Shown in pieces: positions 7,403 to 50,224 of a stretch of 64,000 bases of DNA. The stretch lies in the NCBI GenBank assembly GCA_048885525.1, contig JBHLLP010000011.1, positions 1,552 through 65,551 on the forward strand, in the 5' to 3' direction. The notes under the pieces were generated by a model. That model saw nothing but the letters and a program-made list of their open reading frames with translations. It made no database searches and had not been told where the DNA came from. This DNA comes from Candidatus Hermodarchaeota archaeon. GTDB taxonomy: Archaea > Asgardarchaeota > Lokiarchaeia > Sigyniarchaeales > SOKP01. Position 1 is the first letter of the stretch. Each line of letters begins with the position of its first letter. Both the position numbers and the translations under genes were made by a program.

Positions 7403-8035
7403 ATGTTAAATCGTTTTGAACTTCTTTTTTCAATATTAGGTGGATGGATAGTTTCTATTTTAATCTTAATTCCGGTGAAATTAAATTCTAGAAAAAGATT
7501 ACCAAATGGTTCAATTCATATTGAGAATGTAAATGAAGATATCATTATTTCTACGGGATACAATTTATTTTTATTAGTAGGAATGGGCATTATCTCATTT
7601 CTGAATTTTTTTGTTGTTTTTATATGTATATTTGATTTCTGGAATTTTCTTTCAGAATATTTTGCGTTTAATTTCCCAAAGTTGATAAACTGGATAGGGA
7701 TAATCGGAATTTGGATACAAGATGGATGGGGTGTGGCAGTTATTTCTTATAATGTTAATTATACTCCAGCCTATAAATCAATGAAATTAAATTATATATT
7801 AGCAACTGGAGGTCCCTATAAATATGTAAGGCATCCCATGTATATAGCAAAAGCAATCTTGGTTATTTTCTTTTTTCTAGCAACAGGAATTTGGCTGTCT
7901 CTTTTTGGAGCTTTATCTTGGTTAGGTTTATCTTCACAAGCTAGTAGAGAAGAGGAAGCTCTTGAAAAAAAATTCGGAAGTGCTTATAAAGATTATTTAA
8001 ATAAAACAGGTCGCTTCTTTCCAAAACTGAAATAA
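7403..8035 (+). CDS. isoprenylcysteine carboxyl methyltransferase (ICMT)/phospholipid methyltransferase family protein
   Basis: Polytopic membrane protein with GGPYKYVRHPMYIA and a C-terminal EEEALEKKFGSAYKDYLNKTGRFFP block. Confidence 0.8.
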   Translation: MLNRFELLFSILGGWIVSILILIPVKLNSRKRLPNGSIHIENVNEDIIISTGYNLFLLVGMGIISFLNFFVVFICIFDFWNFLSEYFAFNFPKLINWIGIIGIWIQDGWGVAVISYNVNYTPAYKSMKLNYILATGGPYKYVRHPMYIAKAILVIFFFLATGIWLSLFGALSWLGLSSQASREEEALEKKFGSAYKDYLNKTGRFFPKLK

Positions 8036-8050
8036 TATAATTATTTAACC

Positions 8051-10072: not shown

Positions 10073-10088
10073 AATGATCCTTATTCTC

Positions 10089-10889: not shown

Positions 10890-11017
10890 AAAATACTATT
10901 TATTTGAGTTTATTAAAAATATTTTCAAACAGACTCAAAAATCATGAAATTAAAAGATTAAATATAAGTACATCTCTATTTTACTATAACAAAATTATAA
11001 TTTTTTAATGATTTAAA

Positions 11018-12736: not shown

Positions 12737-12828
12737 TGAAGATTCTGAAAAAAGTAAAATTTACTATTAATCTATTTTTTTTTTAATTATTCTTTATGAT
12801 ATTAATATTTTAATTAGGAGCAATAGGG

Positions 12829-18069: not shown

Positions 18070-20412
18070 ATGAAGGAATTATTCAAAAATCGTAAGATTA
18101 TCATTAAATCTCTCTTATATTTAATATTGGTTATTATAGTTCTTATTTCTTTTTGGAAAATTATTTTCCCAAGCAGTATCGGAGGCTTTTTTATATTCAT
18201 TGCCTTTGGATTATATTATGTAATATCAACTAATGTTTTTAGCAATATTATAATCATTTTATTTTTAATATATTTATTTTATAAGATTTTCAGCTTAAAG
18301 ACTCATAGAAACAAGAAAAAAAAACAATTTCCAAAATTATTTTTTTTATTTATAATATTGATCTCACCCCAATTCTTTATTTCTGACCAAGATTTTATTG
18401 CCCCTAAATTAAGTCAAGGAGAGTGGGAATTCTCAATGAGAACTAATTTCACTCGTACTATCGATTTATTTGAATCTTTTAACGCTACTCAGGGATACAA
18501 ACAACGCAAGACTATATATTTAAATGGTACTAAAAATAGTAATAATGTTTATGCACAACCTGCTCGAGTTTATCAAAATTTAAATATTAGTGAAATTGAC
18601 ATCGAGACATCACTTTATAGAATTTATAATTTTCAGGATTGTCTTGATTTTACATTGAATTCTCTTGTGCGTCTAATTTATATTGACATAAATAGGAGTG
18701 TCTTAAGTTCATCAATAAGAAGTAAAGTCTGTGATGCTTTTGGTAAAGCACAGTATTGGTATACAGAAGGAAGAAGAAGTGATCAAATATTTTATACTGA
18801 AAATCACCAAATTCTCTATCACACTGCTGAATTGCTCATAGGGCAATTATTTCCAAATGATACTTTCGTTAATTCAAACATGACTGGAAATGAGCATGTT
18901 AACCACGCATTACCATTAATAAAAAGATGGCTTAATTGGCGAGCACAATTTGGTTTCTCCGAGTACCATTCTGATACATATTATATCTATGATATTGCAG
19001 CACTTGTTAATTTAGCAGACTTTTCCGAAGATCCTGAAATTATTTATAAAGCGGCTATGGTATTGGATATTATAGCTTTTGATTTTGCCAATAATTATTT
19101 CAAGAGTAGGTTCGCTACAACTCATGGTCGAGTTTATGATCGTACAAAAGTAGGAAGAGGCATGGATTCTCCAGCTTCCCGTGATAGTACTTCAGAGGCT
19201 GCATGGATGATGTTAGGAATTGGAGAACATAATCCAAATGATAGAAGTAATATTGCCGCAATTGCTTTAGCTACGAGTGATTATTATGCACCTCCTCCTA
19301 TCTTAGAGGCCATAGCAATCAATATAACTCAATTTAATGAACATAAAGAATGTAATAGTATTAATATGAATGAAGGTCCGATTTATAATCTCAATTATAA
19401 TGAAGAAGATCTTATGTTTTGGTTAGGAATGACTGCTGTTTATGCTCCACAAACTGTAAAAGAAATCTTTGATCTTGTAGATAAGTACAATATAAAATCA
19501 GATACAATTTATGGTCCTGAACTTCTAAGGGATTTTTTCACGGTATCTTCTTTTTTACATGGATTAACTCTTAGTGAATACTCTGACAAAATGAAATTAA
19601 TTACTCAAGGTATTTGTTTAGAAACTTCAAATACATATACATATAGAACTCCGTATTTTCAACTTTCTGGTGCCCAAGATCATAAAAAAGGGATGAATAC
19701 TTATCAAGAACACGTTTGGCAAGCCACTCTAGACAACAATGCTTTTGTTTATACCAATTCACCTGGAGGTGTTACTAAAGAGCTTGAACAAGAATATGTT
19801 GGAGGATGGAATCCTCGTGCTACATTATATAAGAATGTAGGAATCATTCAATATGACCGTGAAACATTACCGTTAGAGGGAGAACTTCTTTTATACTTTT
19901 TAAATCTCATCATGGGGAATAAGTTTTATCAACATGCATATTTTCCTCGTTGGGCTTTTGACTATTGGGAGCAGCATGGTAAATGGACATTTGGAGCTAA
20001 AGGTAACGGATATATTGGATTATATTCTTATATGGATACTTATTGGGCTTCAAATTATGAACTTCGAGTAAATGGTTTCAAAAATCTTTGGATAGTTGAA
20101 TTAGGAAGTGCTGATGAATACGGATCATTTGACCAATTTATATCAGATATTCGGCAATCTCATATTCAAGTGACCCCTCAAGCATTAGGGTACAGTATAC
20201 GTTATACATCTCCCTCTCAAGGACAGATCAGTGTAGCGTGGGAAGGTCCAATGAAAGTAGATGGTAATGAAGTTGACTTAGGTCCATATCCTCGTTTTGA
20301 AAATGATTTTTGTTATCAAGATTTCGGCACTAAAAACACTCTGATACAGTTTGGTAACCAGAGCTTAGTCTTAAATTTCGATACTGTTTCAAGGATATAT
20401 CAAATTACTTAA
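18070..20412 (+). CDS. membrane-anchored hypothetical protein; possible alpha/alpha-toroid plus beta-sandwich (heparinase II/III- or alginate-lyase-like) ectodomain
   Basis: Four N-terminal hydrophobic helices and a poly-K stop-transfer (HRNKKKKQ). A roughly 650-aa domain follows, with a helix-rich first half (TENHQILYHTAELLIGQLF, WLNWRAQFGFSEYHSDTYY) and a strand-rich second half. The lyase assignment is only a guess. Confidence 0.3.
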   Translation: MKELFKNRKIIIKSLLYLILVIIVLISFWKIIFPSSIGGFFIFIAFGLYYVISTNVFSNIIIILFLIYLFYKIFSLKTHRNKKKKQFPKLFFLFIILISPQFFISDQDFIAPKLSQGEWEFSMRTNFTRTIDLFESFNATQGYKQRKTIYLNGTKNSNNVYAQPARVYQNLNISEIDIETSLYRIYNFQDCLDFTLNSLVRLIYIDINRSVLSSSIRSKVCDAFGKAQYWYTEGRRSDQIFYTENHQILYHTAELLIGQLFPNDTFVNSNMTGNEHVNHALPLIKRWLNWRAQFGFSEYHSDTYYIYDIAALVNLADFSEDPEIIYKAAMVLDIIAFDFANNYFKSRFATTHGRVYDRTKVGRGMDSPASRDSTSEAAWMMLGIGEHNPNDRSNIAAIALATSDYYAPPPILEAIAINITQFNEHKECNSINMNEGPIYNLNYNEEDLMFWLGMTAVYAPQTVKEIFDLVDKYNIKSDTIYGPELLRDFFTVSSFLHGLTLSEYSDKMKLITQGICLETSNTYTYRTPYFQLSGAQDHKKGMNTYQEHVWQATLDNNAFVYTNSPGGVTKELEQEYVGGWNPRATLYKNVGIIQYDRETLPLEGELLLYFLNLIMGNKFYQHAYFPRWAFDYWEQHGKWTFGAKGNGYIGLYSYMDTYWASNYELRVNGFKNLWIVELGSADEYGSFDQFISDIRQSHIQVTPQALGYSIRYTSPSQGQISVAWEGPMKVDGNEVDLGPYPRFENDFCYQDFGTKNTLIQFGNQSLVLNFDTVSRIYQIT

Positions 20413-21448: not shown

Positions 21449-24400
21449 ATGGTTATTTTGAGGTTACTTTCCCTTAATAAAATGTATAGAAGAAAGAGTA
21501 TTTCTTTTATAAAAGCAAATAAAAAGAAGTTTTTAGCAATCTCATTAATTTCAATTATCTTATTTCAGGTACCAATAGTAAATATAACTAACGTTATTTC
21601 TGAAGAAATCACAAAACCTGAAAATATAAGATCCTCTATTCCAGTAGAAGATGAAGTAGATCAATTTTCGAATTCAACAGAGGAAAAATCAAATATTGAA
21701 AGTATAGTACCGCCTGCTCCGCCTGAAGATATTGTAATCCAATTTTCAAATTCACCCGATGTGGTTTTTGATATTAATTATTATTTTGCTCAAGAAAAAG
21801 TGCAAATAAATATAAGATTAAGGAATAATCTTACTAACCCAATATCTCTTCTTAATTTATGGATACAAGTGAATAAAAGCGATCCAGATGAAAGAATATT
21901 ATTATCTGCTACATTTATTAGTGAGGAGTCTGAAAAATTATCTTTATCTACATTTGATACTTCTGAATCGATGATCTTTCATATAAAATTATATGAAGGA
22001 GAAATAATAGAAGTAAACGAAGAATTTGATGAAGTATTTTTAACTTGGGTTGATCCAGATGGGATTTTTGCTCAGTATAATCCAAATTTACTCTATAATG
22101 ATATTGCAGATGATATTGAGGCTTATTTTGAATATTCAATAGATACAGAAGAACCACAACTTTTTCCACTTATAGAACGTCAATTTTATCAATTTAGAAC
22201 ATTAATGTTTTGTGTTGATTTTAGGATCACTAATTTAATGTCAACTGATTTAGATGTTTTTAATTTTACTTACGTAAAAATCAAAGATTTCACCTCTGAA
22301 CAGTACTTGGATCTTAGTATTCAATCTCCATTTTTATCAAGTTCAGAAATTTCCAATATTGAATTAAGCTATTCTGTATTTAATGACAGAATTGAATATT
22401 ACATAAGTTTTAGCCAAAATGTTATTCTAAGTCCAAATGAATGGTTTAAAATTTTAACTAAATGGGCAGGAGTGCCAGGTGAATCTACAATTGGGCGTGA
22501 TCTAATTATATGGAACACTGGTGACGATGACCCATTTAATTTTGGTTATCCTTTTTATGATATAGGAGATCCATTTTATCCAGTTCTATCACCAGCAGAA
22601 CCAATTGTGGATATTGATTATGATGGTGACGGACTTAGGAATAATGTTGAAATTAGTAATGGATTAAACCCTTATGTGCAAGAACCATGGTTAACTTGGG
22701 AAACCTTAAGAAGTAACCATTATGTTGCCGCACAATATTCATCGGGTCTTGAACTAGGAGGAAAAATAGGGATAGTAATTCCCTCCGATTTCTCTAATAA
22801 TGAGCTAATTATGGATGTCCAATCTCTAGGGGTGCAGGATACTCTAAAGAACATAACTGTTAATAATGAACTTATTTATAATGATATTACCTCTATAGGG
22901 AGATTCAGTCTTGCAAACCCCGCGAATGATTACGTCTATAAAATAAAATTAAGAGTTTCTCATGATGTATATGGAAATATGGTTGCATCAACTTTTTCTA
23001 TAAAATTTTTGATAGGGAATACTGAGATTATTGATATGAGTTCATTTTTTCAACTTGATTCTGATGGGGATGGTTTAATAGATGATTTAGAGGAAAGTGC
23101 CTATGTTGAAGTCCCTGACGTTGATAATGATGGATTAATTGATGGAAGCGATGTCATGCCTTTTACTAAAATTGAATGTGCACCAAATGAAATCTATAAA
23201 CTAAATTTTCCAATATATGATACTAATTCAGAAATTGGAGTAAATATTCAAATTAAACCAACTATAGATGACTATACTGAAACTTTCGATTACCGCGGAA
23301 ATGAACTTTATATATTGCCAGGTTTGCGGATTTATAGTTTAAATGTTGGAGGAGATTATTTACCTGATAATTGTTTTTCAATAGATGATGGTTTAACTGG
23401 GCTTATTAGATTAGTACCTCTTAATAGTTTTGGAAATGAGAAACCATATACCTGGTCTAAGACGTTAATATATGAATCTGCAAATTTAGCAAAAAATGAT
23501 AACCAAATTACATTAAGATTTCAATTATCATGGCTTATTTTTGAGCATGATCCAATAAAAATGGAATCAAAACTGTTGCATATATATGATAACACAAATC
23601 AATATACAATTCAAGGAATTTCAATTACAGAAAATCACCCAACAAATATTGTATTAGGTCTGGTTGATGATGGTAGTGATTATCGAAACACAGGAAAGAA
23701 TGCATTATTAGCAACGTATGATCAAGTATCAAATATTGCTTATGATCCAAATAATTACCCATCAATGGAGTTATTTCCAGCTTCTTGTAATGATCTTAGT
23801 GATGTAAATAATACTAGAGATGAATTACGTAATTATATTTTAGAACAGAAAAATCTAGACATTGCAACTACTAATTTTATTTATCTTACCTATGGATATA
23901 CAATGACCTATAATTTTAAATTATTAATTGATGAATTTGGAAATATTCAAGAAAAATATTATACACCAACAGAAATCAATAATTTCTATTCTCTCCCTGA
24001 AACTTCATTTTTTGGCATTATTACAACCCAACTTATAAGAGATGATTATATTGAATTCGTTAAACAATTTACATATGCTTACAAAAATAAGACTGTTGAA
24101 TCTTTACTTTTCAATATTCAATTTTCAAAATGTAAATATGTTGCTTCTGGATCTGATGAAATTTATTGTTTTGAGGGCATAAAAGAAGAGAGTAATGTAT
24201 GGATCTTTTGGTTTGATTTTAAAGAAAAAGAAAATTTGATAAAAATTCGTAATGCAGAAAGTTTTCAATTTACTTGGAATTTACCTATTTTTAGCTTATC
24301 ATTATCTGGACCAACTAACGAGACTTTGATTGAATTTACAGGACTCTATGACGATATACCTATATTAGGAGATATGTTTAATACATATCTTAAAAAGTAT

Positions 24401-27301
24401 GAAGGTGATAAAGCTATAGGGCAAATACCTGTTAAACTGGCTGAAATTGGAGTATTCATAGGCGCTATTTTAGAAGCTATGGGAAAGTTTGTAGATTGGG
24501 GAGGGCGTGTAGGGTTATTATCAAAAGGTATGGGAGTTTTTAGTTTAATAGTTGGTGGATTGAGATTAGGTTATGGAATTGATCTAATTAATCAAGGAGC
24601 ATATAAAACAGGGATGGCTGAAGTGAATCGAGCGGTAATGTCGATTTATTCAGGTATTTTAGCATTTTGTCCTGCTAATCCCGTGACTTTAGTCCTTACT
24701 GCAATAGTTCTTGTTGTAACGCTGGTAGATTGGATTTGTAGCCTATTTGGGTATGATATGTGGGGTGAGTTATTGGAGTGGTGTGGCCTTGAAGATGCAA
24801 ACCCGGCGTATGAAATCACTGACTATTATTTAAGTTATGATACAGCTTTATTAAAACATCAAGGAAGTTTTAGGGTAGGAGATCAGGTTTCATTTCATCT
24901 TGCATATAAGAATACTGGAAATACAAAAATGTGGCTTAGAGTTAAAATAGGTGCTGGATACCTAGGTGAGTGGGGAGAGGAAACGGAAATGTATACCCGA
25001 GGGGGAAAATATTTTAAAAATGAAGACCAGACAACGGTTACCGATACTTTTGAAGTAGCGTATCCCATGACAGTAATAAAGATTTACACCTCATTAAATT
25101 GGTACTATGATGAGTCAGGTGCGGTTATCGTTGTTGCATATCCTCCATTTATTATATACTATGATCCAGATCCAGTTTGGGGAGGACCTTATTCTAATGT
25201 TGAAGAGGTTACGTTTGATATGCCCGTAATGCCTCAAAACATAAATGAGTTTATATATCTTCTTAGGTCTGGTTTATGGTTCCCAGATTGGATAGCCAGT
25301 CCACCAGAAACCAGTGTTACCCCTATTAAAGATGAAATTATCCCAATTTTTTCTGAGGATTTAGCATATTGGATTAGAATCACGAATAGATTATCCAGTG
25401 AACAAACATTTGATCTTATTGGCTCAAATGAAGAAATGTGGGACTATACTTTTTATAAAAGAAATTTTCTAGGTTATTACACTATTCCAACAACTGAAAT
25501 TACACTTGATCCCTGGGAACAGAAAAAGATCAAAGTTTGGATAACCCCCACTTCAATAAATCCACTCCGACCTGGCAATCATACTTCAATTGTGAGAGTT
25601 CAGAGTCAAGAAGCATCATTCATCAGATCTAATGTTAATTTGGATTATGAAATAATTCCACTTATAGGTTTTAAAGTTGATTTTGACCCGATCTTAATTG
25701 AAGGGTTGGATTTAGGAGGAGATGATTATTTGGCATATTTTATAAATGTTACAAACACAGGGAATTTACATGATAATTATACAGTTGAAATTTTGAATTT
25801 AGATATTGATCTTTATGACCTATATAAATCTGCATTATCCGCTTATCCCTTGAGAATGGATTCATCGTTAATTGTATTTTATATTCCATGGGGTAAAATA
25901 GTATTTCCTGGAGAAATATATTTCAATATTAAAGTAAGTTCACATGCAGATCCTAACCTGATAAAGATGTTTAATTGCATCCTTGATATTCAAGAATACC
26001 ATAGAATGAGCTTTTTCGTTGAGGAAGCCAATTTAACATTAACAGATAGTGATATTTTTGATTATAATTTGCATCTCACTAATTTAGGAAATGTTGAAGT
26101 ACCTTTTAATATATCATATACTAATGTGAGTTTTGCCAATACTTTCATCCCGCAGAGTTCCTATATAATGATTCCTGGTCAATATGAAAATTTTAATTTA
26201 ACTATGATACCATTCGAATTAGGTACTGATTCATTTACCATAACAGCAACAACTCCTTATATTTCCAAAACTATTGAAGCGTATATTACAGTACTTGATG
26301 ATGATATATTACCTCCGTGGTTTGAAGCTGTAATAATCAAAGATAATTGTTTCTTCCTTAATATTTCATTTTTAGCATTTGATGAAGTGGAATGGCATAG
26401 TGATGATATTGGAATAGCAAATATATCTATTTATGTAGATGATGTGCTTATTCATAATTATTTACCCACTCCCTCTGAAACAGAATTCAACTTTACTTTT
26501 ACAAATGATTGGATAATGGAATACGGAAACCATACAATTCGTATAGAAATAACTGATGCTGATAATGATAGGCCGAATGACGCTTTAACTACCATCTTAG
26601 AAGCCACTTTTGAAGTTACTCCTGATGAAATGATGGAATATATTCTATGGGAACTTAGTGAACTTGAGGATTATATAGAAGATGTACTCCCATTTTGCTT
26701 TAATAGACCACTTATTAATCATCTTCACAGAGCTCAATGTAAAGTTTGGTGGGCTTTATATTTCTATAATTTTGGATATGATTCAAAGGCAGTACTTTTA
26801 GATATGTTAGCTAAAGCTAGTTTGGAGTTTTATGATATGTTTATATATGTAGTATTAAAACATCATAGAATTTCTGAAGAAGTTGGAGATTATATTTTAG
26901 CTCAAGTTCATAAAATACGTGATCATTTATCCCTTACTATGGGAGCAATAGTTGGAACTGAAACGGCTCTAGAAATTGCTAATATAATCGTAGAGATTTC
27001 TCAATTCGTGGATAACTTCTCCATATACCATAATTTCTGTTTATATATGGCAATTCAACACTATATTAGATGCGCTATTGGTGAATTAGAGTTTGTTCTT
27101 TATTTAATGAGTAAAGGTTATCTACCAGAATGCTTTATTCTTGAACATATTTCTCACGCAATTTTTAAATTAGAATTAACTCAAAAGAAAATTGAGTGCC
27201 TAGTTAAATGTGGCAAAATATCTGAAGAATGTGGTTTATTGCTTATCGAAAAGATCGAATATTTTATTAGTAAAATTAGTAATTTAGAGAATTTTTTATA
27301 G
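21449..27301 (+). CDS. giant (1950-aa) cell-surface protein with a central TM cluster
   Basis: N-terminal signal anchor (KKFLAISLISIILFQVPIV). DxDxDG Ca-binding loops (DIDYDGDGLRNN, DSDGDGLIDD, DVDNDGLIDG). Gly-rich hydrophobic cluster at about aa 990-1110. CARDB/NEW3-like beta-sandwich signatures (VTNTGNLHDNYTVEI, LHLTNLGNVEVPF, PGNHTSIVRVQS). Helical tail of about 220 aa. Many N-x-S/T sequons. Alternative start at ATG 21482. Confidence 0.7.
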   Translation: MVILRLLSLNKMYRRKSISFIKANKKKFLAISLISIILFQVPIVNITNVISEEITKPENIRSSIPVEDEVDQFSNSTEEKSNIESIVPPAPPEDIVIQFSNSPDVVFDINYYFAQEKVQINIRLRNNLTNPISLLNLWIQVNKSDPDERILLSATFISEESEKLSLSTFDTSESMIFHIKLYEGEIIEVNEEFDEVFLTWVDPDGIFAQYNPNLLYNDIADDIEAYFEYSIDTEEPQLFPLIERQFYQFRTLMFCVDFRITNLMSTDLDVFNFTYVKIKDFTSEQYLDLSIQSPFLSSSEISNIELSYSVFNDRIEYYISFSQNVILSPNEWFKILTKWAGVPGESTIGRDLIIWNTGDDDPFNFGYPFYDIGDPFYPVLSPAEPIVDIDYDGDGLRNNVEISNGLNPYVQEPWLTWETLRSNHYVAAQYSSGLELGGKIGIVIPSDFSNNELIMDVQSLGVQDTLKNITVNNELIYNDITSIGRFSLANPANDYVYKIKLRVSHDVYGNMVASTFSIKFLIGNTEIIDMSSFFQLDSDGDGLIDDLEESAYVEVPDVDNDGLIDGSDVMPFTKIECAPNEIYKLNFPIYDTNSEIGVNIQIKPTIDDYTETFDYRGNELYILPGLRIYSLNVGGDYLPDNCFSIDDGLTGLIRLVPLNSFGNEKPYTWSKTLIYESANLAKNDNQITLRFQLSWLIFEHDPIKMESKLLHIYDNTNQYTIQGISITENHPTNIVLGLVDDGSDYRNTGKNALLATYDQVSNIAYDPNNYPSMELFPASCNDLSDVNNTRDELRNYILEQKNLDIATTNFIYLTYGYTMTYNFKLLIDEFGNIQEKYYTPTEINNFYSLPETSFFGIITTQLIRDDYIEFVKQFTYAYKNKTVESLLFNIQFSKCKYVASGSDEIYCFEGIKEESNVWIFWFDFKEKENLIKIRNAESFQFTWNLPIFSLSLSGPTNETLIEFTGLYDDIPILGDMFNTYLKKYEGDKAIGQIPVKLAEIGVFIGAILEAMGKFVDWGGRVGLLSKGMGVFSLIVGGLRLGYGIDLINQGAYKTGMAEVNRAVMSIYSGILAFCPANPVTLVLTAIVLVVTLVDWICSLFGYDMWGELLEWCGLEDANPAYEITDYYLSYDTALLKHQGSFRVGDQVSFHLAYKNTGNTKMWLRVKIGAGYLGEWGEETEMYTRGGKYFKNEDQTTVTDTFEVAYPMTVIKIYTSLNWYYDESGAVIVVAYPPFIIYYDPDPVWGGPYSNVEEVTFDMPVMPQNINEFIYLLRSGLWFPDWIASPPETSVTPIKDEIIPIFSEDLAYWIRITNRLSSEQTFDLIGSNEEMWDYTFYKRNFLGYYTIPTTEITLDPWEQKKIKVWITPTSINPLRPGNHTSIVRVQSQEASFIRSNVNLDYEIIPLIGFKVDFDPILIEGLDLGGDDYLAYFINVTNTGNLHDNYTVEILNLDIDLYDLYKSALSAYPLRMDSSLIVFYIPWGKIVFPGEIYFNIKVSSHADPNLIKMFNCILDIQEYHRMSFFVEEANLTLTDSDIFDYNLHLTNLGNVEVPFNISYTNVSFANTFIPQSSYIMIPGQYENFNLTMIPFELGTDSFTITATTPYISKTIEAYITVLDDDILPPWFEAVIIKDNCFFLNISFLAFDEVEWHSDDIGIANISIYVDDVLIHNYLPTPSETEFNFTFTNDWIMEYGNHTIRIEITDADNDRPNDALTTILEATFEVTPDEMMEYILWELSELEDYIEDVLPFCFNRPLINHLHRAQCKVWWALYFYNFGYDSKAVLLDMLAKASLEFYDMFIYVVLKHHRISEEVGDYILAQVHKIRDHLSLTMGAIVGTETALEIANIIVEISQFVDNFSIYHNFCLYMAIQHYIRCAIGELEFVLYLMSKGYLPECFILEHISHAIFKLELTQKKIECLVKCGKISEECGLLLIEKIEYFISKISNLENFL

Positions 27302-36070: not shown

Positions 36071-36541
36071 GTGATATATAACAACCCAGAGGAACACATG
36101 TCTGAATATGAAGAAACAATTAATAAATTATCAGATCAGATAAAAGACTTATTTTCTAAAATTCATTTTTATCAAGCTCTTGTTGCGGAAAAAGAACATC
36201 AAATATCCCAGTTAGCTAAAGAAAATCAAAAATTGCTCGCTAAAATTCAAGAATTAACATATCTTTCAACTCCAGCTCCTCCTCCAAGTCAGCAATCTTA
36301 TACACCTCCTCCACCCCCAAATAAACACTCTTATACTCCACCAGTTTTTCCATCAAGACAACCCTCCATATCTGAATCCATTGAAGATTCTCGGATTAAT
36401 AAAAGAGTATGTCCCAACTGTGGTGCTATGGGTTTTGCGATAAGAGAAGTAGATGATAAATCAAAGGTAATTAGTTATACTCCAAGACGTATGTATGCTA
36501 AAAAGAAAGCATGTACTAAGTGTAGATATGAATGGAGCTAG
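36071..36541 (+). CDS. hypothetical coiled-coil / Pro-rich / C-terminal zinc-ribbon protein
   Basis: GTG start with AGAGGAG 8 nt upstream. Heptad-like N-terminus (QISQLAKENQKLLAKIQEL). Duplicated PPPxxxSYTPP segment. CPNCG...CTKC ribbon. Confidence 0.5.
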   Translation: MIYNNPEEHMSEYEETINKLSDQIKDLFSKIHFYQALVAEKEHQISQLAKENQKLLAKIQELTYLSTPAPPPSQQSYTPPPPPNKHSYTPPVFPSRQPSISESIEDSRINKRVCPNCGAMGFAIREVDDKSKVISYTPRRMYAKKKACTKCRYEWS

Positions 36542-39384: not shown

Positions 39385-39714
39385 ATGGTTTTAATTGTTG
39401 CTAAAGTCGTGTTTCCCCATGCGAAATCAAATAAAGTGGCGAAAAAGAACATAGAAATGATTCAAAAATATCCTGCTGATCCATCTATTGGTAAAACACT
39501 GGTGATTGGAGTTAAAGCAACGGTGGAGGCCATGGAAGTTTTAGCTGTAGGAGAGGTTAAAAAGGGTAAAGTTGAAGAGTTTATGTCGAGGCTTGCGACC
39601 CAATATCAAGAATATGCTCTACAAATTGATGGATTTAAATATCAGATGGAGACATATTTCTCAATAGCAGAAGCATACAAAATTCTGGGAATGGAACCGC
39701 CTCCAGAAGAATAA
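39385..39714 (+). CDS. hypothetical protein (paralog of 47044..47343)
   Basis: 109 aa, alignable by eye to the 99-aa ORF at 47044..47343. The N-terminal blocks VVFPHAKSNKVAKKNIEM and GTFPGHRASEVGKKFLEL correspond. So do the C-terminal blocks IDGFKYQMETYFSIAEAYKILGME and IEGYEYTLFPVLEAKDALKIIGLS. Confidence 0.5.
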   Translation: MVLIVAKVVFPHAKSNKVAKKNIEMIQKYPADPSIGKTLVIGVKATVEAMEVLAVGEVKKGKVEEFMSRLATQYQEYALQIDGFKYQMETYFSIAEAYKILGMEPPPEE

Positions 39715-41194: not shown

Positions 41195-43045
41195 TTATTG
41201 AGAATATTGAGAGTTATCAGTTTCTACAGTAATTTCTCCATTAATTTCAAGTAATTTTGAACCACAATCCTCACAATAAACGGGTATCCCGCCCAATATT
41301 TTTCTAACGAGCTCTACTGGCAAGTTTTCTCGACATTCAGGACAATTTTGTGGACTAATCGAATTTTCAAATTCAGACATAATAGAAGGAGTCATATCCT
41401 CGTCCTCAGCAAATATATCCACTTTCAAAACTGAAAATTGCTCATCTTTGTTTCCATTTAGAGTTAATAGTAATCCAACAGAATGTTTGCTAAAAGTACC
41501 TTCAGCATAACCTTTGATAAATCCATGGAATTTTCCTTCTAATTCTTCTTTTTCAGAATCAATGATTGCAAAATTTTTCCTTTTTAAAAGATTAGATAAT
41601 TTTTGGTACAATTGAATGGCATTATATGGAATTGTAAATTCTTGTCCAACTTTTTTGAATGTAAGAAGATCTTTAGTGAGATTTTCAAAATCTTCATTTG
41701 ATACTATCTTTGGTCTTAATAGTCCACATATCATTCGGATCTCATGTGGTTCTACATTGATGGTATCGATCTGATCTTTTTCATTAATAAAATTAACTAC
41801 AGCATGAACAGTTCCTTTGATACAATCTTTTTTTGGCTTAAAAACGAAAGTGGGGCTTACAAATCCTCCACCTTTTGAAATTTTGTGAAATTTTGCACTG
41901 TCTGGAGAAAATTGTGGATGTCCATCTACACGTGATAAGATTAAACTTTCCTCTGGATATGAAAGTATATTTATATTGATATTAGTAATGTTAAAGTTTC
42001 TGTTATTAATAACTTTGATCTTGAAGAGATATTCACCTCCCTCAATCTGTCCTCCCCTAAGCACTCGTATATCTGGAGATTTCACATCCGGTTCAGCTGG
42101 AATTGGGGTTGAACTAGAAACACTTTCGCCTTGGGTTGTGTTTGAAGGTTCAATAATTTGTTTAGTTTTGAGAGTTTGCGATTCTAAAGCAAATTTTTTA
42201 CTTGGCATTTCGATAAGATCGCTCTTATCACCTTTAACTAATTTGAAAAGAGAAATTTTATTTTTTGAAGCTGCTACCAAAAGTACGTTTTCTTTTTGTT
42301 CTGAAGAGATTGTATAAGTATCAAGACACTGAATTTTTACCCCTAATTTATGATTGCCAATAATCTCTTCATTTAAATTAATAGCATTTAAAAATCCGTT
42401 TTTATCACCTACAATTAAGATGGGTTGGTTATATATATTACAAAATGTTAGGCATATCGGTTGATACTGTAAGTCAAAAACCAATTCTGAATCTATATCA
42501 TTAATAACATTAAGAATTTTCCCTGATTTAAGTAAAACAAAGATTTTTTTTGTGATATCATTAGATAAATTACCGATAGTGCAATCCATGACTGGTTCAG
42601 GGGCTTTAAATTCTAAAAATTTATTTCCTTTATTATCTAGTCCAAATATTCGTTGATTTTCTAAACCAACTATAATTTCATCTCTACTATCGTCTCTTAA
42701 ATCGCCAGTTTCCATACAAATTACTGGGGAATTTAGATTTGTTGACCAGATTGGATTTCCTTTTTTATCCATTACATAGATATTTCCATCCAACGCTCCT
42801 GATATTAATTCAATATTATCTTTTTTACTTACAGATGCTATTTCGAAGCAGGTTATATTCGAAGCGAATTCAGTGTTAAAAACTTCATTACCTTTTAGAT
42901 CAAAAGCTTTCATTTCTGCATTGAATGAACATCCAATTATTTCAGGTTCTGAGTCCCCTAATAGATTTGCGATTATACAAGAATAGACAGATTTTTGAAA
43001 TTGACGTACCCAAAGTAATTGTAGTTTAATGTATTGCAATGTCAT
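41195..43045 (-). CDS. cytoplasmic beta-propeller (FG-GAP/PQQ-like blades) - S/T/P linker - beta-sandwich - alpha/beta domain - C-terminal zinc ribbon protein
   Basis: No signal peptide. Blade-like repeats are present (GDSEPEIIGCS..AFDLKGNEVF; ALDGNIYVMDKKGNPIWS; GDLRDDSRDEIIVGLENQRIFGLDNKGNKF; ILIVGDKNGFLNAINL). The linker is TTQGESVSSSTPIPAEPDVKSPD. IRVLRGGQIEGGEYLFKIKVINN marks a beta-sandwich. The ribbon is CPECREN...YCEDCGSKL. Confidence 0.6.
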   Translation of the reverse strand: MTLQYIKLQLLWVRQFQKSVYSCIIANLLGDSEPEIIGCSFNAEMKAFDLKGNEVFNTEFASNITCFEIASVSKKDNIELISGALDGNIYVMDKKGNPIWSTNLNSPVICMETGDLRDDSRDEIIVGLENQRIFGLDNKGNKFLEFKAPEPVMDCTIGNLSNDITKKIFVLLKSGKILNVINDIDSELVFDLQYQPICLTFCNIYNQPILIVGDKNGFLNAINLNEEIIGNHKLGVKIQCLDTYTISSEQKENVLLVAASKNKISLFKLVKGDKSDLIEMPSKKFALESQTLKTKQIIEPSNTTQGESVSSSTPIPAEPDVKSPDIRVLRGGQIEGGEYLFKIKVINNRNFNITNININILSYPEESLILSRVDGHPQFSPDSAKFHKISKGGGFVSPTFVFKPKKDCIKGTVHAVVNFINEKDQIDTINVEPHEIRMICGLLRPKIVSNEDFENLTKDLLTFKKVGQEFTIPYNAIQLYQKLSNLLKRKNFAIIDSEKEELEGKFHGFIKGYAEGTFSKHSVGLLLTLNGNKDEQFSVLKVDIFAEDEDMTPSIMSEFENSISPQNCPECRENLPVELVRKILGGIPVYCEDCGSKLLEINGEITVETDNSQYSQ

Positions 43046-43201
43046 TTTAAATCCTTATCTGAAAAATTCTATTTATGTTCAATATAATATAAATTGACTT
43101 AATCATAAAAATAAATCTAAAAGAATTATTCGATAAAAATAATATCCTATCACAAAAAGTAATAAAAAAAAAGAACTTAGAGGAATCTCTGTATTTTCTT
43201 A

Positions 43202-43666
43202 TCATTCTGGCTTTTCTTCTACATCTTCTTTGACTTTCTTTACTAATTTTTTAAAAGCTTGTGTTAAACTACCTATTTCAGGATCTTGTTCTTCTAATTC
43301 TTTATCGAAATCTGTATCAATCTCTTGAAAAGATAGAGTTTTGAGATCGTGGGTGCATAGCTTTAAAGCAATATTTGTTAATTTATGAATTGGATTTACT
43401 ATTGAATCGGAGAGTTTCAAACCAATAAAAAGACTTATTACGATAATTTGCCATAGTGATATAAAGATTATTGCTAATTCTATCTCAAGAGTTTCAGTAA
43501 TTTTAGCTTGATCCTCAGGTGTAGCACCAACAATACTGTTACCAATAACCTCATTAAATATTGCGGCAATAATAGCAATACTCCCCAACGCTATTACACA
43601 AACTATAACGAAACTCAAAAGAATTTCTTGTCTAACCCCAAATTTTCTTTTTTTTTGTTGAACCAT
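43202..43666 (-). CDS. two-TM protein with a divergent HAMP-like cytoplasmic domain
   Basis: TM1, a short external loop (GATPEDQAKITETLE) and TM2. Then IVNPIHKLTNIALKL...DPEIGSLTQAFKKLVKKV (P-helix...EIGxLxxxF, HAMP-like). The ATG is 2 nt after the upstream stop, with GAGGAGGG in the upstream gene's last codons. Confidence 0.55.
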   Translation of the reverse strand: MVQQKKRKFGVRQEILLSFVIVCVIALGSIAIIAAIFNEVIGNSIVGATPEDQAKITETLEIELAIIFISLWQIIVISLFIGLKLSDSIVNPIHKLTNIALKLCTHDLKTLSFQEIDTDFDKELEEQDPEIGSLTQAFKKLVKKVKEDVEEKPE

Positions 43667-43668
43667 CT

Positions 43669-45393
43669 TTATCCCTCCTCTGGTACAAAACCTTCTATTT
43701 CTGATGACACCATTATTTCCTTAACCTTTGTAAAAGCATCAGCGATTCTCTTTGAAACGTTTTTAGCAGAATAAATTGTGATATATTTACCAAGTGGAGT
43801 TGCATTAACAATTTCTGTCATTTTTCGATGAACGCGTTTTAGTTCGGGTCCAACTCCAATTAAAATAATATTGAGGGGAGGCTCAACTTTTTTTATATAA
43901 TTTGCAACTTTGCGAGAATTATACTTTTTACTTTGATTATCTTCTCCATCTGTTAGAGTTACAATCCATTTCTGTCGTTCTTGAGTTTTTTGTTCTGAAA
44001 TTGGTGGTGCTCCCAATAATATATCTATTGCATTAGCTATTGCATCATATAAACTAGTTTGATAAGGTAAAAAGTCCATTTTTTTAAATATATTAGTAAT
44101 TTGCGATACATTACCTTTTTTCTCTGTTAATTTGAGATGGTTATGTACAATAGAATCAAAACCAATAATTGCAACTCTATCTCCAATGTTTATTGTTTCA
44201 TTGAAGACTCCCAAAGCTCCTGTTCGAGCTGCCCCCATTTTTCCCCACATGCCCATGCTCCCAGATTGATCAATTACAAAAACCACATCTTTTTTACGAA
44301 CCAGTACATCATCTACTTTTGAAAGTTCAAGCTCTGCTTTATGATGAAGAGTTGTATTATCCTGACTTTCATATAATTGAACCATAACTTCAAGGACATT
44401 TTTCATTAAAGGATAATTCCCAAGATTTTCTGCTAATTTCAAAGCATTTTTAAAATGATCCTCTGCAATCCCTGGATTGTTTTTTAATATATTTAGCCTC
44501 CCTAGTTGAAATTCATCTTCTGATAATCCTACATTATTTTCCCATTTACTATCAAGTCTAAATGCCTCATCAAGTTGTTCTTGAGCGAGATTCAATTCAT
44601 TTTTTAACATGTGAAGTACTCCTATATTTCTTTTTCTTGAAGCAATTCCTAACTTATCTCCCAACTCATTGTCAAGTTTAAGAGCTTTGTTAAAATCGTC
44701 CATTGCTTCTTGCCATCGTTCTTCTGAAAGAAAAAGAAGAGCACGATTGTTATATCTGGCACTTAATGCTCCAATATCCTCCTGTTCTTCACCAATTTTA
44801 ATCGCCTTATTATAACTTTTCCTTGCTTTATCAATATCACCCCAATTCCTGTAAATATTTCCAAGATTATTTAAACACATGCTCTCTCCATGAAGATTTT
44901 TTGTTGTTTGAAATAATTCTAAAGCAGCATTATAGTTTCTGAAAGCAAGCATCAAATTACCTTGATAATAACTTTTATTCCCTAAACGCATTGTAACCAA
45001 TAAACTCTGAAAAGATTGGGCAAGTACACCAATTTCATTTCTTCTCATTCTTCCACTCATAGGAATTTCTTGGGTTAAATCACCTTCAGATATTTGTTCT
45101 ATTGAATGTGTTAGCTCTATAATTGGTTTGGTTATTCTTCTGGAGATACCATTTACAGCAAAAAATATGATAATACCGGTTATAGCTGATCCAATAATGA
45201 TGGTTATGATTAAAGGGCTTTTTAAAGCTTCAAGTGAACTGTACCCTAATCCTATAAAATAGTCAATATTTGTTAAGAGTTGATACGCTAAGAAAATTGT
45301 TAAAAGTATGAAGGGGATTGAAATACAGGTAATCATAACAATGAAGAGCCGTTGTCGTAATGTTCTTCTTTTTCTTATTTTTTTAACTTCCAT
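43669..45393 (-). CDS. TM-HAMP-TPR-vWA (intact MIDAS) membrane protein
   Basis: Two TM helices. A canonical HAMP (ITKPIIELTHSIEQISEGDLTQEIP...RNEIGVLAQSFQSLL). About 6-7 TPR units (e.g. AFRNYNAALELFQ, ARKSYNKAIKI, AMDDFNKALKL, AEDHFKNALKLA). A vWA domain with VVFVIDQSGSMG (DxSxS), QTSLYDA (Thr) and TLTDGEDN (Asp). Confidence 0.75.
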   Translation of the reverse strand: MEVKKIRKRRTLRQRLFIVMITCISIPFILLTIFLAYQLLTNIDYFIGLGYSSLEALKSPLIITIIIGSAITGIIIFFAVNGISRRITKPIIELTHSIEQISEGDLTQEIPMSGRMRRNEIGVLAQSFQSLLVTMRLGNKSYYQGNLMLAFRNYNAALELFQTTKNLHGESMCLNNLGNIYRNWGDIDKARKSYNKAIKIGEEQEDIGALSARYNNRALLFLSEERWQEAMDDFNKALKLDNELGDKLGIASRKRNIGVLHMLKNELNLAQEQLDEAFRLDSKWENNVGLSEDEFQLGRLNILKNNPGIAEDHFKNALKLAENLGNYPLMKNVLEVMVQLYESQDNTTLHHKAELELSKVDDVLVRKKDVVFVIDQSGSMGMWGKMGAARTGALGVFNETINIGDRVAIIGFDSIVHNHLKLTEKKGNVSQITNIFKKMDFLPYQTSLYDAIANAIDILLGAPPISEQKTQERQKWIVTLTDGEDNQSKKYNSRKVANYIKKVEPPLNIILIGVGPELKRVHRKMTEIVNATPLGKYITIYSAKNVSKRIADAFTKVKEIMVSSEIEGFVPEEG

Positions 45394-45426
45394 TTTATTT
45401 TTTCACTCTCTTATTTCTTATAAAAA

Positions 45427-46182
45427 TTAAACTCCCTTGTCTATTCCTTCATATATTAGAAAGATCGATGTAAAAATAGAAGCTTTAACAATAGCTAAAC
45501 CAATCAATGGCATATCAGAAACACCTGCATCAATGATTCCAAAAAGAGAAACAAACATTATACCTAATCCCATTGAATATCTCCTCCATTTAGCGGTTTT
45601 ATCCTCGAGTTTTGACCCAGATTGAAGAATAGCCGGTCCTAAGATTACCATCATAATAACCAGCACCACCCCCAATAATGCCAATGCCAAACCTTTAATC
45701 CCTGTAGATGGTAAACCTCCACCTATTTCCTCGGATGGTTTCCAGGAAGTATATGTTGAAGGATTGGAATAAATTAAAATAGCGAAAATTATACTCACTA
45801 TTCCTACTATGCCTGTAATTGGGATTTTATAACGACCTTCTTTAAACAAATCTGAAGCTATATATGCCCAAATGGTTGCACCTAAAGCAGGACCCCAAGC
45901 ATATCCAAGAACGCCGATATTTGGATCACCATCCGGATACCCTAATGGAGGAAAACCGAAAATCATTAATAAAAAACTTGCAGAGACTCCAAACCAAGCG
46001 TGAAAAACGGAGATTAAACCAATTCCACTTAATATTAATCTTTTTTTAACTTTTATATCAGTTGCTTTTCTAGCATGCTTAAAAATGAGGATAAAAGCTA
46101 ATATATAACCAGCGGCAATAATTTCAAGACCTGTGAGTCCATTTATTATATCAATATTTGGAAGAACCATATATGTTAACAC
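45427..46182 (-). CDS. polytopic (about 7-TM) hypothetical membrane protein
   Basis: 251 aa with about seven hydrophobic helices and no recognisable motif. Its stop lies 33 nt upstream of the HAMP-TPR-vWA gene start, on the same strand. Confidence 0.5.
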   Translation of the reverse strand: MLTYMVLPNIDIINGLTGLEIIAAGYILAFILIFKHARKATDIKVKKRLILSGIGLISVFHAWFGVSASFLLMIFGFPPLGYPDGDPNIGVLGYAWGPALGATIWAYIASDLFKEGRYKIPITGIVGIVSIIFAILIYSNPSTYTSWKPSEEIGGGLPSTGIKGLALALLGVVLVIMMVILGPAILQSGSKLEDKTAKWRRYSMGLGIMFVSLFGIIDAGVSDMPLIGLAIVKASIFTSIFLIYEGIDKGV

Positions 46183-47043: not shown

Positions 47044-47343
47044 TTAACTTAATCCTATAATTTTAAGGGCATCTTTTGCTTCTAACACAGGAAACAATGT
47101 ATATTCATATCCTTCGATATCCATATATCCCGCAAATCTAGTAACTATTGCTTTTATTGCTTCAAAATATTTATCTTCTTCCGTGATTTCGTAAATTGTA
47201 AAGAATCTATAACCTTTATCCGCTGTATTGAAAACGTGCTCAGTTTTAATATAATCAGGTAATTTGGGGAGTTCTAGAAACTTTTTTCCTACTTCAGAGG
47301 CTCGATGCCCTGGAAATGTACCAGTAACAACTACATATGCCAT
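47044..47343 (-). CDS. hypothetical protein (paralog of 39385..39714)
   Basis: See 39385..39714. Same length class and alignable blocks. Confidence 0.5.
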   Translation of the reverse strand: MAYVVVTGTFPGHRASEVGKKFLELPKLPDYIKTEHVFNTADKGYRFFTIYEITEEDKYFEAIKAIVTRFAGYMDIEGYEYTLFPVLEAKDALKIIGLS

Positions 47344-48609: not shown

Positions 48610-48730
48610 AAATCTAATGTATTTTTAAAAAATATTATAAAGAATATCTGGAATATAATATCATAATAATTTATTGTATACCAATAAACTAGTGAAAAAT
48701 AGAAATTAATAAGATAAAGTGAGAAATATA

Positions 48731-50224
48731 ATGTCTGATAATATTACAATTCAAGTATTTTTCATTGGAAAACCACAATGGGAAGGTGGGTGGCCTTATG
48801 TAGGCTTTGATAATGAATCATTGATAAAATCCATTCTCGATCACTTAAATGAGAAATTTCCGAAAATTGAGTTTAAGGCTAATGAGATGATTGGAACTTA
48901 TGATAAAAATTTAGTGGAGAAAATTAAAAAAGAAATATTGGAAGCAGATGGTTTGATAATTTATACAATTGGGCACTACGGTGACCCTGGTTTAATTCAA
49001 TCTGGTATTGAAATAATAGAATGTAGAAGACTTCCTATAATCCTTGCTAATCTTATTTATGCAGGTGATCATACATTTACAAAAATTTTTGTAGGTATTA
49101 AGGACAAAAATTTGCCTGTCTATGCAATATCTTCCAAAAATTTGGAAGATTTTGACAAACCAATTGAAATAATGCATAATATCTTGAGAATAAAAGAAAA
49201 AAGAATCTCAGTTTATGCTAGTGATTCAAGTGAGATGAATTGGAAGGTCATCTTAGGATTAATAAATCCAGAACGTAAAAATGTCGTGAAAGAATTTCCT
49301 GATTTTATTGAACAGGTTGGAAAACTAAGTGATGAGAAATTTGAATTTTACACAGACTTCGCTGGAATTGACCAAGCCCATCAATGGAGAATAGATGAAA
49401 AAAAATATCAAGAAAATTTAAAAAATATTTTTGGCGTTGAGATGATAAGAGAAAATCCAGATGATATCCTTAAGTATTACAATGAAGCAGACAAAGAAGG
49501 AGCTAGGAAAATAGCAGAAAAGTGGACAGAAAATGCAAAAATTGTTGAACCAACTGAAAAAACAATATTAAATTCCGCTAAATTATATCTTGGATTTAAA
49601 AACATGATAAGGGATAAAAAATCTGAGATCTTTACACCAGATTGTGGAACATTTCTATTAACAGGTAAAATGCCGGCGTTTCCTTGTATGGCTTTTTTTG
49701 AATTAACAAATGAGGGACATTATGGAATTTGTGAATCCGATATGGACTCAGCAATAAGTTATTTATTCGGTTTATATTTAACTAATAGACCTGGATTTGT
49801 ATCAAACCATACTCTTGATACAGTTAATAATCAAATCACTTATATGCATTGTGTTGGGGCAAATAGGTTATTGGGTATTGATGGTCCACCTGCAGAATAT
49901 GACATCATACATCATGGAGAATCTGGCTTTATAGGTGCTTGTCCTAGGATTAAATTTCCAATAGGTGAGATAGTAACAACTATTAAAATCAGCGTATTCG
50001 AAGGAAAAATTGAAATTAGGCAAGGTAAAATTATCGGTAATCCTGAGGATAAAGGAGGATGTGTATCTAAAATGCTTGTAGAAAGTAATGTCAATAAGAT
50101 TTTAGAAACATATGATTGGGAAACTTTTGGGTGGCATCGCATTAGTTTTATTGGAGATTGGAAAGAAGAATTCATGATTGGCGCCAAATTACTAGGATTA
50201 AAAATTATTGACCAAACTAACTAA
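48731..50224 (+). CDS. L-fucose/L-arabinose isomerase family-like protein (COG2407-like)
   Basis: N-terminal Rossmann-like part with ADGLIIYTIGH. The GHYGICESDMDSAISYL block resembles the catalytic CE.D segment. C-terminal GWHRISFIGDW. The start is set at ATG 48731 (the track start is GTG 48719). Confidence 0.4.
   Translation: MSDNITIQVFFIGKPQWEGGWPYVGFDNESLIKSILDHLNEKFPKIEFKANEMIGTYDKNLVEKIKKEILEADGLIIYTIGHYGDPGLIQSGIEIIECRRLPIILANLIYAGDHTFTKIFVGIKDKNLPVYAISSKNLEDFDKPIEIMHNILRIKEKRISVYASDSSEMNWKVILGLINPERKNVVKEFPDFIEQVGKLSDEKFEFYTDFAGIDQAHQWRIDEKKYQENLKNIFGVEMIRENPDDILKYYNEADKEGARKIAEKWTENAKIVEPTEKTILNSAKLYLGFKNMIRDKKSEIFTPDCGTFLLTGKMPAFPCMAFFELTNEGHYGICESDMDSAISYLFGLYLTNRPGFVSNHTLDTVNNQITYMHCVGANRLLGIDGPPAEYDIIHHGESGFIGACPRIKFPIGEIVTTIKISVFEGKIEIRQGKIIGNPEDKGGCVSKMLVESNVNKILETYDWETFGWHRISFIGDWKEEFMIGAKLLGLKIIDQTN

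Follow-up and report, generated by a model that had tools for sequence, protein, structure and literature searches.

Four co-directional genes, here called A, B, C and D, occupy positions 41,195 to 46,182 on the minus strand of the window, as we call the whole 64,000-nucleotide stretch of a Candidatus Hermodarchaeota contig (JBHLLP010000011.1) that was analyzed. We rate this operon as a receptor system of the HAMP/dCache kind whose output, being non-enzymatic, is unprecedented and whose partner resembles adaptins and BBS proteins. In the reading that we favor, and to which we assign a probability of about 50%, it is an Asgard-specific module without an enzymatic output, in which B and C make up a receptor without a kinase and the TPR-vWA arm of B would engage D as a hub or adaptor. 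HAMP receptors are known to drive kinases, methyl-accepting domains or cyclases. To our knowledge, proteins with the layout of BBSome subunits or with adaptin-type ears have few prokaryotic counterparts, and we know of none in a signaling operon.

Gene order was followed in two sets of loci. Six B homologues (31-84% identity) were examined in their contigs, and one genome per GTDB species was scanned with exact degenerate patterns taken from an alignment of the D C-terminus, which retrieved 18 loci, all of them Asgard. An exact-pattern scan can miss divergent copies, all contexts are metagenome-assembled genomes (MAGs), and no absence from cultured Asgard strains is implied. A C-type gene follows B in each of the six B-anchored loci and D comes next in four of them; in 16 of the 18 D-anchored loci, B-C lies immediately upstream of D on the same strand, as judged by BLAST carried out for every open reading frame (ORF). 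Three more loci (L026-L028) have the same gene order. Since the flanking genes of L001, L003 and L004 differ, this order persists even where wider synteny does not, and the conservation across related genomes that a preliminary description of this DNA had proposed to check thus holds for B-C-D. As to the two exceptions, the L024 match is a protein with eight transmembrane (TM) segments that has the appendage part of D alone and is not a D orthologue, and L011 carries a D gene (8173-9867) without the first 40 codons, probably a decaying remnant, near which nothing of A, B or C is left. The L011 gene lies beside an inverted TrmO/TrkA flank, neighbors that are shared with the window. A lone Arf-like ORF 3.5 kb from it was considered as a GTPase-neighbor link and set aside as probably coincidental; no ESCRT or small GTPase neighbor was found among the scanned window ORFs.

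The genes are evidently real, because each has 80-100 conserved homologues. About 90 homologues were found for A, about 100 with the full architecture for B (other matches to B are through its TPRs alone) and about 80 for D. Every named homologue of these three proteins comes from an Asgard MAG, and on this evidence the module appears to be Asgard-specific. Exact copies of A, B and D are labeled as Asgard MAG proteins under the submitter names Hodarchaeota and Hermodarchaeota; the G+C content of the window is ca. 30%. Searches of the literature on Asgard, BBSome, HAMP, vWA and TPR returned no description of this operon. Archaeal appendage-like domains have been published before; the operon appears not to have been.

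Architecture of the receptor-like pair and its two forms

The ORFs were found exactly where the preliminary description had placed them (A as ORF 45427..46182), and the spacings and the Shine-Dalgarno-like element that it had listed were likewise recovered from the sequence. Gene A (45427..46170) encodes an orphan 7-TM membrane protein of 247 amino acids; its start is probably the ATG at 46170 rather than the alternative GTG at 46182, because all A homologues begin with MVLPNID. After a 33-nt gap comes gene B (43669..45393), whose product of 574 amino acids is a two-TM receptor with a HAMP domain, a TPR array and a vWA domain. The TAA of B is separated by 2 nt from the ATG of gene C (43202..43666; 154 amino acids), a two-TM, HAMP-only paralogue of the N-terminal module of B, and the Shine-Dalgarno-like GAGGAGGG lies within the last B codons (43673..43680). 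Gene D (41195..43045), coding for a soluble protein with a propeller, a hinge, an appendage and a Zn ribbon, follows 156 nt after C.

In B, two hydrophobic segments (TM1, 45292-45348; TM2, 45154-45210, residues 62-80) are followed directly by a HAMP domain (44998..45147, residues 83-132), which Pfam recognizes with an E-value of 6.2e-10 and 39.7 bits against a cut-off of 25. The HAMP domain leads into a TPR array (44359..44985, about residues 137-345; TPR_12 at 3.5e-20 and further Pfam TPR families), for which the B profile retrieves PDB matches of the LGN/Pins and kinesin-light-chain type, and then into a vWA domain (43813..44289, residues 369-527; Pfam VWA at 2.5e-11). A complete metal-ion-dependent adhesion site (MIDAS), consisting at the sequence level of the DxSxS motif (DQSGS at 44257-44271), Thr and Asp within the vWA domain, had been claimed for this protein along with its HAMP and TPR regions. 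All three domains are borne out by the profile searches, and the MIDAS residues D375, S377, S379, T446 and D482 do not vary among 23 relatives (28-100% identity). Thus, B has the two TM segments and the HAMP domain after TM2 that are typical of a HAMP receptor, a class in which Pro opens AS1 and AS2 carries DExG..L..F; the enzymatic or methyl-accepting chemotaxis protein (MCP) output expected downstream is replaced in B by TPR and vWA only, and C stops after its HAMP-like region. As the preliminary description had stated, the module lacks a partner of the histidine kinase, MCP, GGDEF, MoxR or Bat type; none was found among the 24 neighboring window ORFs that were scanned or in the related loci.

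Because the N-terminus of B is basic, there are two TM segments and HAMP comes after TM2, we infer that the TPR-vWA arm is cytoplasmic. The two TM segments are just 27 residues apart, and so B in the form found in the window appears to have no sensor domain. At its C-terminus, B carries a conserved acidic-aromatic tail, SSEIEGFVPEEG (43672..43707), which reads SSEIEGFxPEE across relatives, with E567 and G568 invariant and F569 and P571 nearly so. Since the tail is retained in relatives of another form (see below), where the Shine-Dalgarno element sits in the spacer and outside the coding region, it is evidently a peptide motif and not just a ribosome-binding site.

Protein C also has two hydrophobic segments (TM1, 43568-43624; TM2, 43421-43477) and a HAMP-like region (43229-43405) that was delimited by signature residues and profile alignment. 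The window C protein scores under the Pfam HAMP threshold (E-value of 0.052; 14.3 bits against 25). In an alignment of 18 sequences, the signature is invariant, with P92 opening helix 1 and E130-x-G132-x-L134...F138 in helix 2, and the connector is lengthened. Comparison of C with NCBIfam retrieved the N-terminal TM-HAMP regions of histidine kinases (1.6e-6), and profile-profile alignment of C and B by hhalign gave a probability of 100% and an E-value of 1.7e-65 over 436 columns that cover TM1, dCache, TM2 and HAMP; within a single dCache-form locus, L004, BLASTP aligned B and C at 8e-25. C is thus, by its sequence, a paralogue of the sensor-HAMP module of B, and the earlier proposals that it is a second HAMP-like two-TM protein without an output and that it pairs with the HAMP protein B are well founded.

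Two forms of the pair were distinguished. In the short form, to which the window belongs, B (ca. 575 amino acids) and C (ca. 150) have only short loops outside the cell; the long-form proteins are larger (B ca. 870, C ca. 500 amino acids), and each has a dCache_1 domain inserted between its TM segments. B and C always agree in their ectodomains, so that either both have dCache or both have short loops. The dCache columns of the B-family profile match the eukaryotic alpha2-delta calcium-channel subunits and CACHD1 (E-value of about 1e-16). The extracytoplasmic input that had been proposed for the module finds support in the sister form, where both partners carry dCache. The D proteins follow the division into forms, the identity of D being 58% or more in loci of the short form and 31-46% in those with dCache, and one MAG holds both forms (L012 and L023). 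The B-C junction differs as well: it measures 2 nt or is an overlap (-1) in 12 of 12 short-form loci; in the dCache form, the spacer is 6-15 nt long and contains a GGAGGT-like Shine-Dalgarno element (GGAGG/GAGGT). The tight spacing of B and C is consistent with translational coupling.

In L007, a B-C locus without D, the C homologue (191 amino acids; 9435-10010) ends in a D-type Zn ribbon (hhalign probability of 96%, E-value of 2e-9); a small two-TM protein encoded upstream of B in this locus likewise has C-terminal Zn ribbons. A gene for an arginine/ornithine decarboxylase stands right after the dCache-form B-C(-D) genes in three lineages (L004:13160-13798, L027:7171-7800 and L005:11218-14567). 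Such a link could hint at sensing of amines or amino acids, or could be due to chance; it was seen in L004, L005 and L027/28 only and not in L020-L025, and we regard it as unproven.

The gene for the 7-TM protein A immediately precedes B in each of the 10-11 short-form loci whose contig extends that far, and none of the seven dCache-form loci with upstream sequence carries it. Accordingly, A is not in the universal core and accompanies the sensor-less short form only; of the four-gene module described earlier, it is B-C-D that constitutes the conserved core. An A-like candidate upstream of the dCache-form B in L006 proved to be unrelated (hhalign probability of 1.5%). The A homologues are all at least 56% identical, and no match to A was obtained in Pfam, NCBIfam or PDB searches (in the PDB, even at an E-value of 5). 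The protein has seven hydrophobic segments, and its basic loops, by the positive-inside rule, suggest an N-out/C-in topology. Within the predicted TM helices, three polar residues are conserved, E16, D214 and K229, if numbering begins with the ATG at 46170. A lysine in TM7, together with the N-out/C-in 7-TM topology, is reminiscent of rhodopsins, in which this Lys binds retinal and with which A shares no sequence similarity. Assignment of A to microbial rhodopsins or to another known 7-TM family was rejected on account of the empty database searches and of the replacement of the TM7 Lys by Arg in one member (P0285).

Protein D, its structural matches and its variants

D has neither a hydrophobic segment nor a signal peptide and is, on these grounds, predicted to be cytoplasmic. 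An AlphaFold2 model of the full protein, built with 36 sequences, reached a mean predicted local distance difference test (pLDDT) of 74.7, and a separate model of the C-terminal half reached 72.1. The N-terminal part is modeled as a beta-propeller (42233..43045, residues 1-271) of six repeats of ca. 44 residues, with 24 strands and pLDDT values of 80-94. A predicted disordered hinge follows (42080..42232, residues 272-322; pLDDT 25-30), made of low-complexity, weakly conserved columns. Next comes an appendage-like region (41408..42070), delimited by the AlphaFold models and Foldseek, in which an Ig-type beta-sandwich (41729-42070, residues 326-439) precedes an alpha/beta platform (41408-41713, residues 445-546). 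The protein ends with a Zn ribbon, CPEC-x19-CEDC (41264..41344, residues 568-594). The preliminary description of D as a propeller and Zn-ribbon protein is therefore right in both parts and incomplete, the hinge and the appendage-like region being additional.

At the sequence level, D is tied to known families through its propeller. Pfam returned Beta-prop_BBS7 at 30.9 bits (cut-off of 27) and the BBS9 family PHTB1_N at 29.2 bits (cut-off of 28.6), with comparable scores for other propeller families. The search for a sequence-level tie of D to solved structures ended with weak propeller matches alone (Vps15, ITFG2), and residues 320-560 had no Pfam or PDB sequence-profile match. When the full model was compared with the PDB by Foldseek, the best nine matches were all BBSome chains (6vbu chains 9, 7, 2 and 1; 6xt9_I; 6voa/6vnw chains), with E-values of 3e-17 to 2e-13 over 525-693 columns. 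We read 6vbu chains 9, 7, 2 and 1 as BBS9, BBS7, BBS2 and BBS1 from the chain naming of the entry and from chain lengths. The next matches, DDB1 and IFT-A at about 7e-12, were ca. five orders of magnitude weaker. For the C-terminal half, the AP2 alpha ear was the best match (3e-7 over ca. 250 columns, i.e. the whole ear), followed by the beta2 ear and the COPI gamma appendage, down to 6e-5; the match of this half to the BBSome was weak (6voa_D at 3e-3 over 114 columns). The remark in the preliminary description that these domains belong to the vocabulary of eukaryotic coat components is thus apt for D.

The order of parts in D, with a propeller, a linker, a GAE-type sandwich and a platform, is that of BBS9, BBS7, BBS2 and BBS1 (6VBU, 6XT9, 6VOA), although the sandwich and the platform after the propeller are seen at the structural level only. 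In contrast to BBS proteins, D has a disordered hinge instead of the coiled coil and a Zn ribbon instead of the alpha-helical C-terminal domain, and the match in sequence is confined to the propeller. Counterparts of BBS4, BBS5, BBS8 or ARL6 were not found in the loci, and the TPRs of B are of the generic TPR_12 type. Compared with the AP2 alpha and beta2 ears and the COPI gamma appendage (7OHI, 1W80, 1E42, 1PZD), both subdomains of D are matched, i.e. an Ig sandwich and a TBP-like platform after a flexible hinge, in predicted structures of moderate confidence. However, D belongs to no Pfam ear family, has a propeller in place of the N-terminal HEAT/alpha-solenoid trunk, carries an extra Zn ribbon and differs in the orientation of its subdomains (root-mean-square deviation of about 15 Å). 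As judged from the models, D most resembles BBS2/7/9 in its layout, and the adaptin and COPI ears come nearest to its ear; these comparisons do not establish homology.

The appendage-Zn-ribbon half (41264-42070) also occurs elsewhere. Its profile retrieved 455 clusters (proteins P0291-P0436 among them), 142 of these at E-values below 1e-30, in which the module is C-terminal in proteins of 264-2867 amino acids; the named members are from Asgard MAGs. Its N-terminal fusion partners include NosD/beta-helix, SBBP, LVIVD, TSP3, LRR, solute-binding and TPR domains, and in ca. 60% of the module-bearing clusters TM segments precede the module. It looks, from these sequences, like a common cytoplasmic tail or hub of Asgard membrane and surface proteins, the propeller being specific to the B-C context. 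Among D variants, propeller-only proteins are still encoded downstream of B-C in L006 and L027, and of the C-terminal elements it is the Zn ribbon that persists most (D' of L006, the C fusion of L007). In one variant, P0141 (L026:3258-5609; 783 amino acids), a TIR_2 domain is inserted in the hinge and the A-B-C-D operon is otherwise normal; as read by eye, this domain has Glu at the catalytic position of TIR NADases.

The C-D intergenic region (43046..43201) contains an oligo-T run just after C (43152-43175) and a TATA-like TTTATATTATATTG (43080-43093) located 35-48 nt before the ATG of D. Across the 19 loci that were compared, the gap always measures 72-164 nt, and in most of them C is followed by seven or more T in a row. 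Archaea use oligo-T terminators and TATA boxes, and by analogy the two elements may be a terminator and a promoter, in which case D would have a promoter of its own.

Proposed mechanism and competing explanations

In the reading that we favor, B and C would form an asymmetric heterodimeric receptor, with a four-helix HAMP bundle made of one B and one C chain and, as a result, a single output arm. The input to the dCache form would be an extracellular small ligand. In the short-loop form of the window, the 7-TM protein A would replace the dCache ectodomains and feed the input laterally within the membrane, as sensory rhodopsin II does to its HAMP transducer HtrII, or as in intramembrane-sensing kinases, for which accessory membrane proteins supply the stimulus. 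The HAMP switch would move the TPR-vWA arm, and the MIDAS metal and/or the EIEGFxPEE tail would then bind or release D; the tail might serve the MIDAS as a built-in ligand, or else be a motif that binds the ear or the propeller. The propeller of D would be the system-specific contact, and the hinge-appendage-Zn-ribbon part a generic hub that recruits partners, possibly proteins of the membrane-remodeling or trafficking type. Recurrence of the appendage-Zn-ribbon module behind many kinds of N-terminal parts is what a hub would show, and appendage domains are known as hubs of interaction. The output would be regulated recruitment of proteins at the membrane and neither phosphorylation nor a second messenger. 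Recruitment of D by the vWA/TPR arm is a step that we infer. Ties of D to B and C are seen in L011, where the D gene that lacks B-C is truncated, in L007, where C carries a D-type ribbon and D is absent, and in L006 and L027, where propeller-only D variants still come after B-C.

Several observations weigh against this proposal. D is missing after B-C in two of the six B-anchored loci (L005, L007) and is therefore not obligatory, and with an oligo-T run and a TATA-like box in the 156-nt gap it is possibly transcribed separately. The likeness of D to appendages is structural only, the Pfam and PDB sequence profiles giving nothing in that region; the models themselves are of moderate confidence (74.7 and 72.1), and their TM-scores to BBSome and adaptin chains are 0.2-0.35 (ca. 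0.3 for the BBSome), because domain orientations differ. The six repeats of the D propeller contrast with the seven blades of BBS propellers. Finally, the correlation of A with the short form may stem from one evolutionary event.

A more far-reaching version, which we put forward as a doubtful possibility, would make D a true relative of the propeller-GAE-platform proteins of the BBSome and of coat appendages, and the operon a prokaryotic receptor-gated adaptor system, in which the ligand-sensing receptor B/C, with A or dCache as its input, would use the MIDAS/TPR arm to bring a proto-coat or adaptor protein to the membrane.

The conserved gene order would fit equally well with B and C sequestering D at the membrane and setting it free upon a signal, following the logic of anti-factors, with D acting in the cytoplasm through its Zn ribbon on a nucleic acid or a regulator. 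The persistence of the ribbon among D variants is in line with this scheme. Yet no DNA- or RNA-binding domain was found in D by Pfam, the appendage-Zn-ribbon module resides mostly on membrane proteins, which suggests action at the membrane, and in L007 the ribbon is fused to the membrane protein C. We consider this course of events rather unlikely.

The vWA, TPR, beta-propeller and Zn-ribbon domains overlap with the vocabulary of vWA ternary conflict systems, in which MoxR and a vWA protein with variable C-terminal effectors are joined by a VMAP, iSTAND or FtsH component (PMC7159879). Following the logic of these or of TIR systems, B would be a vWA/TPR sensor scaffold and D an effector-adaptor of a conflict or immune system, and the TIR_2 insertion in P0141, as well as the two paralogous systems of one genome (L012, L023), would find an explanation. 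This is very unlikely, however. There is no MoxR, STAND or other NTPase in any locus, and a PADLOC scan of all four proteins returned a generic TPR match only. The architecture is fixed: among about 80 D clusters, a single one is the TIR variant, and an effector is never part of B. A is highly conserved throughout, at 56% identity or more, the dCache sensors of the sister form suggest small-molecule sensing, and the neighbors are housekeeping or metabolic genes. With neither NTPase nor effector variability nor a defense signature, the remark in the preliminary description that pointed to conflict systems is not supported.

A membrane-anchored protein with TPR and vWA also resembles BatB and BatC, and NCBIfam gave weak matches of B to BatC (23 bits) and of D to BamB (19.6 bits), as would be expected of a Bat-like or MoxR-type scaffold for the assembly or quality control of membrane or surface proteins with D as a BamB-like propeller factor. 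Both scores are far under the cut-offs (175 and 423 bits), and MoxR, BatA or BatD genes are not adjacent. D, with neither a signal peptide nor a TM segment, is predicted to be cytoplasmic, as is the TPR-vWA arm from its topology, and HAMP and dCache are modules of signaling rather than of assembly. A scaffold of this type is, in our estimate, highly improbable.

That D is a mere conserved neighbor, transcribed from its own promoter and functionally unconnected with A-B-C, as the 72-164 nt gap with its oligo-T run and TATA-like box and the absence of D from L005 and L007 might suggest, is scarcely credible in view of the adjacency and orientation kept in 16 of 18 D-anchored loci at 31-85% D identity and with changing flanks, of the divergence of D in parallel with the B/C form, of its truncation where B/C is lost and of the D-type Zn ribbon found on C where D is missing.

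Relation to known systems and significance

The receptor-and-adaptor reading can be set beside several known systems. As in sensory rhodopsin II/HtrII and in HAMP transducers generally (MCPs and sensor kinases), B has two TM segments with HAMP directly after TM2; the short extracellular loop of the window-form B and the 7-TM protein encoded alongside recall the rhodopsin-transducer pair and would suggest lateral signaling in the membrane, and the dCache ectodomain of the sister form recalls MCPs and kinases. Unlike these transducers, B and C have no MCP domain, kinase or cyclase, the output of B is TPR and vWA, an output-less paralogue C is always co-encoded, and A is no recognizable rhodopsin. 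BceS/BceAB and LiaS/LiaF are intramembrane-sensing kinases dependent on accessory membrane proteins. The genetic coupling of the minimal-loop sensor B to the polytopic A resembles them and fits the strict correlation of A with the short form; the operon, however, encodes no kinase, and A is an orphan 7-TM protein and not a transporter. The alpha2-delta subunits and CACHD1 also combine a MIDAS vWA with Cache domains, but in these proteins both are extracellular and HAMP is lacking, whereas the vWA of B is predicted to be cytoplasmic. With Bat (BatA-E), MoxR-vWA and ternary systems, B shares a membrane-associated vWA with a full MIDAS plus TPRs; the operon differs from them in lacking MoxR AAA+, VMAP, iSTAND and variable effectors, so that it falls under neither definition, and the architecture of B is unchanged across about 100 homologues.

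Adaptin appendage regions (Ig and TBP-fold) have been described in archaea in linkage with Vps4/ESCRT-III genes, namely in Meth_adaptin, Halo_adaptin and Asgard Vps28-C/appendage/longin proteins. Among these, a Zn ribbon is found in one type, and in another a WD40/PQQ-like propeller stands at the N-terminus; a role as interaction hubs was suggested for them (Makarova et al. 2024, PMC10936438). D shares the appendage fold with these proteins and differs from them in being tied to a HAMP-TPR-vWA pair and in having no ESCRT neighbor in the window or in the loci. The main text of that paper mentions neither vWA nor a B-C-D operon; HAMP was not among the terms looked for.

Elsewhere in the window, a polysaccharide-use cluster (5338-14862) encodes a family 11 rhamnogalacturonan lyase with FG-GAP repeats, a GH3 glycosidase and an HGSNAT-like membrane acetyltransferase. 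Two large plus-strand ORFs (18070-20412, 780 amino acids; 21449-27301, 1950 amino acids) have no Pfam match at an E-value of 1e-3. The 156-amino-acid product of 36071-36541, in which a coiled coil and a Pro-rich repeat (PPPP..SYTPP) are combined with a CxxC...CxxC ribbon at the C-terminus, has no Pfam match either, and the same is true of ORFs 39385-39714 (109 amino acids), 47044-47343 (99 amino acids) and 48719-50224 (501 amino acids). The first of these three has a counterpart in L001, a 108-amino-acid ORF, by size and position alone; the other two have no such counterpart there.

A widespread receptor family whose output is TPR-vWA only and which always comes with an output-less twin would represent a different route of transmembrane signaling. 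Many membrane proteins of Asgard archaea end in the appendage-Zn-ribbon module, a hint of a docking system that they have in common. If the link between B/C and D is physical, the operon would be a testable Asgard candidate for the coupling of receptor or cargo recognition to adaptors and coats before eukaryotes; and if D is a true relative of BBSome or coat proteins, receptor- or cargo-driven recruitment of adaptors would predate eukaryotes and would have been present in Asgard archaea.

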